A DNA stretch of 64,000 bases. Source: a virus. The position numbers were made by a program, and so were the translations under genes. Below the pieces are notes generated by a model that worked only from the letters and a program-made list of their open reading frames with translations, was not told the DNA's origin and made no database searches. Shown piece by piece: positions 8,995-12,563 of this stretch. Each line of letters opens with the position of its first letter. Within the stretch, counting starts at the first letter, position 1. The DNA is taken from the IMG/VR virus record IMGVR_UViG_3300009593_000010, positions 1 to 64,000 of that record. One strand, written 5' to 3'.

Positions 8995-9152
8995 TGAAGA
9001 GAAGTGGATTTGGATTTACTGCAATTTCTCCAACCAAGAAATCTTCATCAATTGGTCAAGGTGGAAGAGGTAGAAAAGTTAAGATTGCAACTTCCAGCAT
9101 GAACAAGAACAAAAAAAGATCACATAAGCCATATCGCGGACAAGGAAGATAA
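8994..9152 (+). CDS. Small basic peptide (52 aa) ending [13 protein letters not shown]
   Basis: AGGAG SD; TAATG coupling on both sides; read manually. Confidence 0.7.
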
Positions 9153-9445
9153 TGAAACCTAATAGAAGACCCCAACAACAAAAAGGATACGACAGGAATA
9201 AGAACTTTAAGAAGAAGAAGTTCGATAAACCAAAAGGCCCACCACCTTTTGATGTATTACTTAGACAATTCAAAAAGAAAGTAGAAAGAGCTGGAACCAT
9301 CCAAGAGGTTCGTGATCGTCAATATTATATTAAACCTTCTGAGAAAAGACAAAAGAAGATTAATGCAAGAAAAAGATTAAATGAAAGAAGAATAAGATTG
9401 GAGAAAGAAGTTTGGGAGGCTAGGAAAAGGTCATCCCATTGGTAG
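9152..9445 (+). CDS. rpsU: Ribosomal protein bS21 with a basic N-terminal extension
   Basis: [37 protein letters not shown] matches the S21 pattern (ALRRFKR...E.R.RE.Y.KPS). Confidence 0.9.
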
Positions 9446-11091: not shown

Positions 11092-11988
11092 ATGTCTTTT
11101 CAAGACTTAAAAAGAAACCGCAGTGGGTTCGATACACTGCAAAAATCACTAGAAACCTCTAGTGGAAATAATACCCAAAAATCATTTGCTGATGATCGTT
11201 TCTGGAAAATAGAAATGGATAAATCTGGTAATGGATATGCAGAACTAAGGTTCTTGCCTGCACCTAATGGTGAAGACATGCCTTGGGTTCAGTATTGGGA
11301 TCATGGATTTCAAGGGCCAGGTGGTTGGTATATTGAAAAGAGTTTAACGACTCTTGGAAATTCCGACCCAGTTTCAGATTACAACTCTGAACTATGGAAC
11401 TCTGGAATCGAAGCAAATAAAGATATTGCAAGGAAACAGAAACGAAGATTACATTATGTATCTAATGTTTATGTTGTCTCAGACCCAGCACATCCAGAGA
11501 ACGAAGGTAAAGTTATGCTTTATCGTTTCGGTAAGAAAATCTTTGAGATGTTAAAGGATAAAATGCAACCTCAGTTTGAGGATGAACAAGCAGTTAATCC
11601 TTTTGACTTATGGGAAGGTGCAAACTTTAAAGTTAAGGTAAGGAAAGTAGATGGATTCTGGAACTATGATAAGTCTGAATTCACTGCACCAAGACCTTTG
11701 TTTGATGATGATGAAAAATTGGAAGCAACTTGGAATTCTCAACACTCTCTTGCTGGTGTAATTGCACCAGATCAATTCAAATCTTTTGATGAATTGAAAG
11801 AGAAGTTGGATAGAGTTCTAGGACTTGCTGTTGGATCCGCAACTGCACAATCAGTTAGTCAAGACAACTCTGATGTTGCACATCCATCACCAATGCCTGT
11901 TGCATCTGAACCAGTGACACCAGTAGTTAACGACTCGGCCGAGACAGAATCAATGTCTTACTTTGAGAAGTTAGCAAATGATGTTTAA
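11092..11988 (+). CDS. gp32: Single-stranded DNA-binding protein gp32
   Basis: DDRFWK...GNGYAELRFLPAP, HGFQGPGGWYIE, RYGKKIF-like RFGKKIF, FDLWEGANFK; acidic tail ending YFEKLAND. Confidence 0.97.
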   Translation: MSFQDLKRNRSGFDTLQKSLETSSGNNTQKSFADDRFWKIEMDKSGNGYAELRFLPAPNGEDMPWVQYWDHGFQGPGGWYIEKSLTTLGNSDPVSDYNSELWNSGIEANKDIARKQKRRLHYVSNVYVVSDPAHPENEGKVMLYRFGKKIFEMLKDKMQPQFEDEQAVNPFDLWEGANFKVKVRKVDGFWNYDKSEFTAPRPLFDDDEKLEATWNSQHSLAGVIAPDQFKSFDELKEKLDRVLGLAVGSATAQSVSQDNSDVAHPSPMPVASEPVTPVVNDSAETESMSYFEKLANDV

Positions 11989-12020
11989 GATTCTTTAGAC
12001 AAGTTTGTAAATGTGAATTT

Positions 12021-12028
12021 TATAAATA
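12021..12028 (+). promoter_or_regulatory. T4 late promoter with no downstream protein gene on plus
   Basis: TATAAATA about 20 nt before the structured GC-rich element. Confidence 0.7.
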
Positions 12029-12048
12029 TATAATGCACAAACACTAAA

Positions 12049-12181
12049 GAAGTAGGGGACTAGTTTTCGAGTGCTAGTCAGATTGAGGACAGACGGATGG
12101 GGTCACTCAATTCGAGGAAAGATATCAAGCGGCAGAGGATATCGGATTAACGGCGGGAGAAGGGGCCAGTTCAATCACTTC
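12049..12181 (+). ncRNA. Candidate structured ncRNA (terminal helix closing four hairpins, GGA-rich)
   Basis: About 50% GC by my count (67/133), well above the AT-rich flanks. Stems: GAAGT/ACTTC, GACTAG/CTAGTC, ATTGAG-GAC/GTC-CTCAAT, GATATC/GATATC and GATT-AAC-GGC/GCC-GTT-AATC. Confidence 0.6.
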
Positions 12182-12563
12182 AAAATTTTCTATACCAATA
12201 GATTCCATTATGCATAACGACTACTCCTTGAACTCCATTTAACCATCTGAGTGCTTTCTCTCTATCGTTCACTTGTTCATCAAGTATATTATAGATAAGA
12301 ATATTACCAAAAAGTTTTAGAGTAACCAGTTGACCCTTTGTAGGTCTCTCTCCTAATATTGGGTTCCTTTCAACGATAGGACAATATGGTTGTTTCTGAC
12401 AATCTATCATTGAAAATGTTTGGTATGTATCAAGAACAGAAAGTGCTACATAAGACTTCCAGAGTTTTTGTTCCTTCTCAGACCAATCTGAGGGTTTTGC
12501 TTGCAAAGGTTCGCAACTACCCGCTGCAGATATGAGAAGTATAATTGTAAATATCCATTTCAC
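12180..12563 (-). CDS. Exported/membrane hypothetical protein
   Basis: N-terminal signal (possible lipobox AAGSC); DTYQT...ERNPILG motif. Confidence 0.65.
   Translation of the reverse strand: MKWIFTIILLISAAGSCEPLQAKPSDWSEKEQKLWKSYVALSVLDTYQTFSMIDCQKQPYCPIVERNPILGERPTKGQLVTLKLFGNILIYNILDEQVNDREKALRWLNGVQGVVVMHNGIYWYRKF

Follow-up and report, generated by a model that had tools for sequence, protein, structure and literature searches.

Translation of gene 32 of phage T4 is controlled by an operator consisting of a pseudoknot in the 5' leader of the mRNA and an unstructured A/U tract upstream. Genes for ribosomal proteins are often controlled via structured leaders, and bacterial small RNAs of the 3'-UTR type, e.g., DapZ and MicL, are transcribed from a promoter of their own, located at the end of the gene upstream. 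Orphan RNAs of phages include the stable RNA species 1 and 2 of T4 (rnaC and rnaD) and the manA and wcaG motifs of marine phages. SAR11-type bacteria are the presumed hosts of those marine T4-like phages that carry a gene for ribosomal protein S21, and these phages rank with the most abundant viruses of the sea. Known riboswitches were sought in a survey of pelagimyophages, and none was found (PMC7029224). For protein bS21, binding to OLE, a structured RNA that is not part of the ribosome, was described (PMC12054373). Here, we analysed a stretch of 64,000 nt (the window), representing positions 1 to 64,000 of the viral record IMGVR_UViG_3300009593_000010 (129,558 bases), and identified an RNA of an uncatalogued family, which is always located directly 3' of gene 32 and occurs in two clades of phages.

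Gene 32, encoding the single-strand DNA-binding protein, was assigned to the ORF at 11092–11988 (+ strand), which revealed blastn matches to sequences annotated as ssDNA-binding protein or gp32. It is followed by a perfect copy of the T4-type late promoter TATAAATA (12021–12028, + strand) and by a G-rich stretch with a GC content of 0.47 compared to 0.36 for the genome and a GC skew of +0.40. Both the promoter copy and the GC-enriched island had already been recognized in a reading of the letters alone (the sequence-only reading). RNAfold reproduced the four hairpins proposed there, enclosed in the minimum-free-energy fold by a 5-bp helix (12049–53/12177–81). On the + strand, an unpaired GGGG (12055–12058), appearing as GGGG(G/A) or GGGA in alignments of relatives, leads into hairpin H1 (12058–12079; GACUAG/CUAGUC with a loop of 10 nt), which was identified from the predicted fold and from covariation. 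Hairpin H2 (12081–12112; GAUUGAG+GAC/GUC+CUCAAUU), seen in the predicted fold and in relatives, displays the G-rich loop AGACGGAUGGG. Next come a junction motif G.GG.AAG, here GAGGAAAG (12114–12121), with G, GG, and AA invariant and the last G kept in at least 90% of the sequences, and hairpin H3 (12121–12143; GAUAUC/GAUAUC), whose loop carries the invariant GCGGCAG (12129–12135). Hairpin H4 (12145–12176) is formed by GAUUAACGGC and GCCAGUUCAAUC, is bulged, and has an apex framed by the invariant blocks GCGGG (12153–12157) and GGGGC (12162–12166). The tail that follows (12177–12191), with UUUU at 12186–12189, is the probable 3' end of the RNA and overlaps the stop codon of a convergent ORF on the − strand (12180–12563). 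As had been predicted, ACGGAU, GAGGAAA, and GGGAGA are unpaired in the minimum-free-energy fold of the window sequence. ARAGORN detected no tRNA or tmRNA in the window. The fold itself was not more stable than expected by chance (z −1.41; 15 of 200 shuffles equally stable).

At the level of sequence, it is the comparison with relatives and not the statistics of a single sequence that settles the reality of the RNA. A gp32 protein search led to 80 loci on uncultured viral contigs, and the stretch 3' of gp32 was conserved in all loci that had a gp32 at least 64% identical and sufficient downstream sequence. The resulting clade comprises 57 distinct sequences including that of the window, with the other 56 derived from contigs of uncultured marine T4-like phages. 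DNA identity of the 3' core was 76–90%, compared to only 64–85% for the gp32 protein at the same loci, and the range for the 3' half of the stretch held even at loci whose gp32 was as little as 64–68% identical. Alignment of 30 distinct sequences revealed 23 invariant bases in a core of 73 positions, arranged in the blocks G.GG.AA, GCGGCAG, GCGGG, and GGGGC; the junction GAGGAAAG is replaced by GUGGUAAG throughout one subgroup, and GAGGCAAG and GCGGAAAG occur as further variants. A covariance model built from the regions 3' of gene 32 (R1) matched the conserved 3' core of the window over its full length (12110–12179, + strand; 78.6 bits, E 3e-20).

Covariation among homologues, named beforehand as a test of the RNA, was found in all four hairpins. 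For H3, 100% of the cells were paired, and five of six pairs had changed on both sides; for the inner stem of H4, the values were 94.8% and four of six, with apical inserts of 0–25 nt in the relatives forming an optional extra hairpin. In groups A and B, all six pairs of H1 had changed on both sides (99% of cells paired), and H2 was paired in 95% of the cells with one AU/GC swap, split 10:9. The architecture of the H2 region depends on the subgroup, since the sequence changes wholesale and group C forms two hairpins instead, though a G-rich loop at this place is common to all subgroups. Taken together, 13 of 16 pairs in the core and 7 of 12 in the 5' half had changed on both sides. The covariation observed in the core was reached by none of 500 shuffles, and slid controls were about four-fold lower. 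Analysis of mutual information showed no signal for tertiary pairs beyond the helices, only a phylogenetic one. The terminal helix 12049–53/12177–81, which the sequence-only reading had described as closing the four hairpins, is thus present in the window's own fold but is not conserved (mean z −0.28 in 55 homologues).

The conserved stretch does not code for a protein. Stop codons were found in all six frames, each in at least 55 of the 57 homologues, whose lengths range from 90 to 192 nt and differ by non-multiples of three. While no ORF beyond a short MHKH peptide had been noticed before, a 48-aa ORF with a GTG start (12071–12217) does run through the RNA and ends inside the terminal part of the convergent gene. 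No relative conserves this ORF, all frames being closed there. A 5' mini-ORF (AUG-CAC-...-stop) was detected in groups A and B and is not taken as functional, because it is absent from group C. An RNA from the minus strand was ruled out, since the G-U pairs (21 such cells in H3 alone) are compatible with the + strand only. Covariation, invariant blocks, closed frames, and G-U pairs therefore identify a structured, non-coding RNA of the + strand. That the locus is a small protein gene or a chance fold of a spacer, for which the GTG ORF and the non-significant fold of the single sequence might be quoted, is hardly conceivable against the closed frames and irregular length differences on the one hand and covariation and invariant blocks spanning two clades on the other.

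Across all 129,558 bases of the record, and hence also within the window, this core is the only place matched by R1. A pattern scan of a viral contig collection followed by R1 revealed 49 true matches, all directly 3' of gp32 with TATAAATA in between, and gp32 adjoins the RNA in every locus positive for the covariance model whose flank reaches far enough. Overall, the family counts about 100 distinct members, spread over two clades of marine T4-like phages that are uncultured and carry S21. Searches against Rfam resulted in no match, whether to an unrelated known family or otherwise, at the gathering score, at E up to 10 for 11900–12300, or at E up to 1 for five homologous loci; only chance matches outside the element were seen (snoR22, snoR8a, Histone3). 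BLASTn with four representatives of the family against 50,697 phage records, including cultured phages, gave no homologue, the sole matches being two chance matches of 22 bases (E = 6). tBLASTn with the phage S21 returned distant matches in Gram-positive phages only, and the literature searched held nothing like the RNA. A pattern scan of 185,579 species genomes led to one find, a contig of phage origin in the bin of a Synechococcus MAG, and R1 found nothing further in 61 genomes of that MAG's order. The contig in question (NYUU01000001.1, locus L198/L306) is a 30-kb T4-like group A contig in the MAG "Synechococcus sp. CPC35" and carries the genes for gp32 and for the small basic protein described below, together with the RNA; it is either mis-binned or a hint on the host.

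Loci of the sister clade were retrieved via the window's S21 and via a sister gp32 (about 60% identical). Though built from the window's clade only, R1 matched 5 of the first 15 loci derived from S21 (E 1e-4 to 1e-3). Among 51 further sister loci, 21 were matched with E values of 0.1 or lower, always at the syntenic position, which brings the total to 26 loci at E ≤ 0.1, of which 20 were at E ≤ 0.01. None of 15 outgroup gp32 loci was matched. The sister RNAs represent a diverged version in the same place after gp32. Common to both clades are a G-rich hairpin loop, GG.AA, and an H3 loop ending in GCGG, whereas the loop GCGGCAG is specific to the window's clade. In the sister version, H4 reads (G/A)CGGG...GGGG(C/U), with a swap from G-C to A-U at the pair adjacent to the loop. 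Two further differences concern the surroundings: S21 usually follows the RNA in the sister clade but lies upstream of gene 59 in the window's clade, and none of 44 sister RNAs is preceded by TATAAATA, which stands in perfect form ahead of the RNA in the window's clade.

Within that clade, the promoter copy was found in all 56 other distinct homologues with sufficient upstream sequence, which together with the four covarying hairpins upholds the view that a late promoter precedes a gene for a non-coding RNA of several hairpins. The count of TATAAATA in the 64,000-nt window was not above chance (8 compared to 7.3 expected). In the 129.6-kb record, 20 of 21 copies are on the + strand, and most are intergenic and located 6–70 nt before an ORF; the copy at 12021 is the only intergenic one in the record without an ORF behind it. 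We call it a late promoter on the basis of this genome-wide pattern and of its perfect conservation. Transcription would start at about 12034–12036 by analogy to T4, and the RNA of the window's clade would thus be a discrete late transcript from its own promoter. Independent transcription does not appear to be a feature of the whole family, since the sister clade lacks TATAAATA. The structural genes on the minus strand right of 12180 show no copy of the motif and therefore use another promoter form. Outside the window, at 74457–74522 of the record, TATAAATA is followed by a G-rich leader of 58 nt and an ORF of 71 aa, which may be a second structured leader.

A further helix, P0, was predicted between UUCUUUAG (11991–11998, + strand), upstream of the promoter, and CUAAAGAA (12045–12052, + strand) in the leader of the late RNA, with GUUUGU/ACAAAC as inner pairing, so that it spans the late promoter. 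The same design is present in groups A and B with different sequences. On the columns of group A, 83.6% of the cells were paired, compared to 11–47% in slid controls, and 6 of 10 pairs had changed on both sides. Since its 5' arm lies upstream of the promoter, P0 can form only in RNA reading through from gene 32. Its 3' arm overlaps the arm 12049–12053 of the non-conserved closing helix, with which P0 competes. In group A, the upstream arm alternatively forms a local hairpin just after the gp32 stop codon, and these two folds are mutually exclusive. At the other end, a U-run follows H4 in 23 of 30 sequences of group C and in 29 of 44 of the sister clade, where no + strand gene follows immediately, compared to only three of the 25 sequences of groups A and B, most of which have a + strand gene immediately after the RNA. 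In the window, UUUU is found 10 nt past H4, and a simple terminator scan flagged nothing at 12145–12191. Probably, H4 doubles as a terminator where one is needed, though the invariant loop bases exceed the needs of a plain terminator.

What follows the RNA differs between the groups. In the window and in group C, there is no + strand gene after it, and the next gene is convergent. Group A harbors a gene for a lysine-rich basic protein (68–75 aa after the RNA in this group, 60–75 aa overall) starting with M..WHGGKGSK..RP (e.g., L009 4120–4326 and L014 4104–4331), for which no Pfam or PHROG match was obtained. The window's genome encodes this small basic protein as well, at 74784–74966 and thus 62 kb away, with its own late promoter and without such an RNA. 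The protein could be an RNA-binding partner. As no U-run follows the RNA in group A, it may be only the 5' leader of the next gene there. In the group of L001, a minimal RNA of 85 nt (L001 2221–2318) consisting of the 3' core only precedes a gene for a CxxCH protein of 426 aa. This protein (L002 4046–5326; also in L001, L005, and L006), encoded among the closest gp32 relatives, looks secreted, carries a CxxCH haem motif, and revealed a weak match to Cytochrome_CBB3 (17 bits). In the sister clade, the RNA begins about 10–35 nt past the gp32 stop codon and is followed by S21 or an uncharacterized ORF; in most loci, the start of S21 lies about 20–100 nt after H4 and its U-run, and in several another ORF or a promoter-like sequence intervenes. 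All loci of the window's clade that reach far enough carry S21 ahead of gene 59, at a distance of 1.4–1.7 kb upstream of gp32. The window S21 (9152–9445, 97 aa; PF01165 at 44.3 bits) displays a long basic N-terminal extension and overlaps the start of gene 59, and two small basic ORFs lie ahead of it (from 8866). Since the gene after the RNA varies and the U-run tracks the absence of a following gene, the RNA appears to be a module in its own right.

The RNA is non-coding, lies on the + strand in a single copy per genome, and comprises four covarying hairpins. We consider it probable that it is an autonomous small structured RNA of the late phase whose invariant 3' domain binds a specific partner. 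According to this explanation, an RNA gene of about 150–160 nt would reach from roughly 12035 to 12190 on the + strand. In the window's clade, the late promoter would drive separate synthesis of the RNA in the late phase of infection, while read-through from gene 32 would also carry it, perhaps earlier and refolded via P0; H4 and the U-run would end the transcript where no gene follows. The invariant, purine-rich 3' domain would most likely form a specific protein-binding surface, with the phage gp32 or the phage S21 as candidate partners by gene neighbourhood, and it would act neither via GGA motifs nor via Shine-Dalgarno pairing. Our confidence in any named partner is far below that in the explanation as a whole. 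Several observations weigh against the explanation: we infer the promoter, the start site, and the 3' end alike; gene 32 as the constant neighbour fits a cis role in its mRNA equally well; the fold of the window is no better than that of shuffles; and mutual information gave no hint of tertiary pairs beyond the helices. Two modes of action were tried and rejected. The complement of the GCGGCAG loop as an antisense target occurs once in the genome, in a scaffold-like gene, without extended pairing and in about the number expected by chance. The idea that the RNA imitates the 3' end of 16S rRNA or the site recognized by bS21 in OLE (PMC12054373) was dropped, since spacing and sequence do not line up. 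A bolder version, which makes the RNA a dedicated partner to a protein from the same gene block, at its boldest S21 retuning host ribosomes or translation late in infection, or, equally bold, a new-class aptamer or ribozyme built on the four conserved G-tracts, seems distinctly doubtful.

The sequence-only reading had favoured a decoy for CsrA/RsmA acting via GGA motifs in loops, with a mimic of the Shine-Dalgarno sequence as an alternative. The window copy does contain the seven GGA triplets counted there, three or four of them predicted to be unpaired. Yet this number is not above chance (4.8 ± 1.8 expected, z 1.2) and not conserved, as homologues carry 0–8 GGA (mean 4.9 compared to 4.4 expected; mean of 0.5 for ANGGA). 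Three full-length homologues have none at all (including L179 and L198; R1 score 72.4 bits), and a loop GGA does not figure among the invariant blocks. The Csr/Rsm models of Rfam gave no match in 11900–12300 at E up to 10 or in five homologous loci at E up to 1. A CsrA gene (PF02599) was found neither in the 129.6-kb phage record nor in the 61 genomes from the same order as the Synechococcus MAG, though the true host is possibly SAR11, outside those 61, and the Caulobacter and Synechococcus control genomes of the same search revealed no CsrA either. Overall, the decoy model does not look right and is close to refuted, and the Shine-Dalgarno mimic fails because GAGG is not conserved. A riboswitch-like attenuator of a new ligand-sensing class or a self-cleaving ribozyme would be in line with the typical pattern of invariant bases in junctions and loops, covarying stems, and variable optional hairpins, and also with the terminator-like H4 and the + strand genes that follow in some groups. 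However, searches at E up to 10 matched no riboswitch or ribozyme of Rfam, the genes downstream, where there are any, are unrelated, and neither a conserved pairing alternative to H4 nor a recognizable cleavage-site signature was found. A consistent class of downstream genes together with an expression platform, as expected of a riboswitch or cis-acting leader, was not observed, and we regard this reading as improbable.

Two readings tie the RNA to a neighbouring gene. The RNA could be a cis-acting 3' UTR element of the gene 32 mRNA, serving termination, stabilisation, or gp32 autocontrol, with the late promoter being secondary. Gene 32 is the only constant neighbour in about 100 members, directly upstream and on the same strand; the sister RNAs follow its stop codon closely without any TATAAATA; H4 plus U-run resembles a terminator in many members; and P0 joins the 3' end of gene 32 to the leader of the RNA. 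On the other side, the perfect late promoter stands between gene 32 and the RNA in all 56 other members of the window's clade, so that the RNA can be made without gene 32; a plain terminator would not need invariant loop bases or an optional apical hairpin; and the known gp32 operator of T4 is unlike the phage RNA. We rate this reading as rather unlikely, yet worth keeping in view. Much the same weight is given to a link to S21, with the RNA as leader or attenuator of the phage S21 gene, or as binding partner or decoy for bS21 of either the phage or the host. It draws on the short distance from H4 and its U-run to the S21 start in most sister loci, on the S21 gene 1.4–1.7 kb upstream of gp32 in the window's clade, confirmed by PF01165 in the window, on structured leaders being common among ribosomal protein genes, and on the binding of OLE by bS21 (PMC12054373). 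In the window, S21 lies 2.6 kb upstream of the RNA, which makes control in cis impossible there, and in several sister loci another ORF or a separate promoter-like sequence stands before S21. Moreover, the RNA is almost without C-rich stretches and thus offers no duplex like that of Shine-Dalgarno and anti-Shine-Dalgarno sequences, as bound by bS21 in OLE, and a relative without the RNA still has S21.

Riboswitches, ribozymes, and protein-binding regulators have often emerged from orphan motifs of such a kind. The RNA described here provides a concrete small object for studying the control of late gene expression or the use of a phage ribosomal protein. Should it be no more than a structure at the end of the gene 32 mRNA, this classic autoregulated gene would have its first described 3' control element.

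Compared with known systems, the RNA is unlike the translational operator of T4 gene 32 in that it lies 3' of the gene. It resembles CsrB, RsmY, and RsmZ in its small size, its multiple hairpins including a terminal one, its purine-rich loops, and a promoter of its own, but differs from them in that GGA is neither enriched nor conserved, no model matches, and no CsrA was found. With OLE, it shares the nature of a structured non-ribosomal RNA genetically linked to bS21, and the order of RNA, terminator-like hairpin, and S21 in the sister clade resembles an attenuating leader of a ribosomal protein gene; in contrast to both, it has no duplex mimicking Shine-Dalgarno and anti-Shine-Dalgarno sequences and does not lie upstream of S21 in the window. 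Like rnaC and rnaD of T4 and the manA and wcaG motifs, it is a conserved, structured, phage-borne orphan RNA, though it shows no similarity to them in sequence or model and occupies a different genomic position. Compared to DapZ and MicL, it has a phage late promoter, and its invariant bases lie in structured loops instead of a single-stranded seed; like them, it adjoins the 3' end of a protein-coding gene, could be produced by read-through as well as from its own promoter, and seemingly shares one terminator hairpin between both transcripts.
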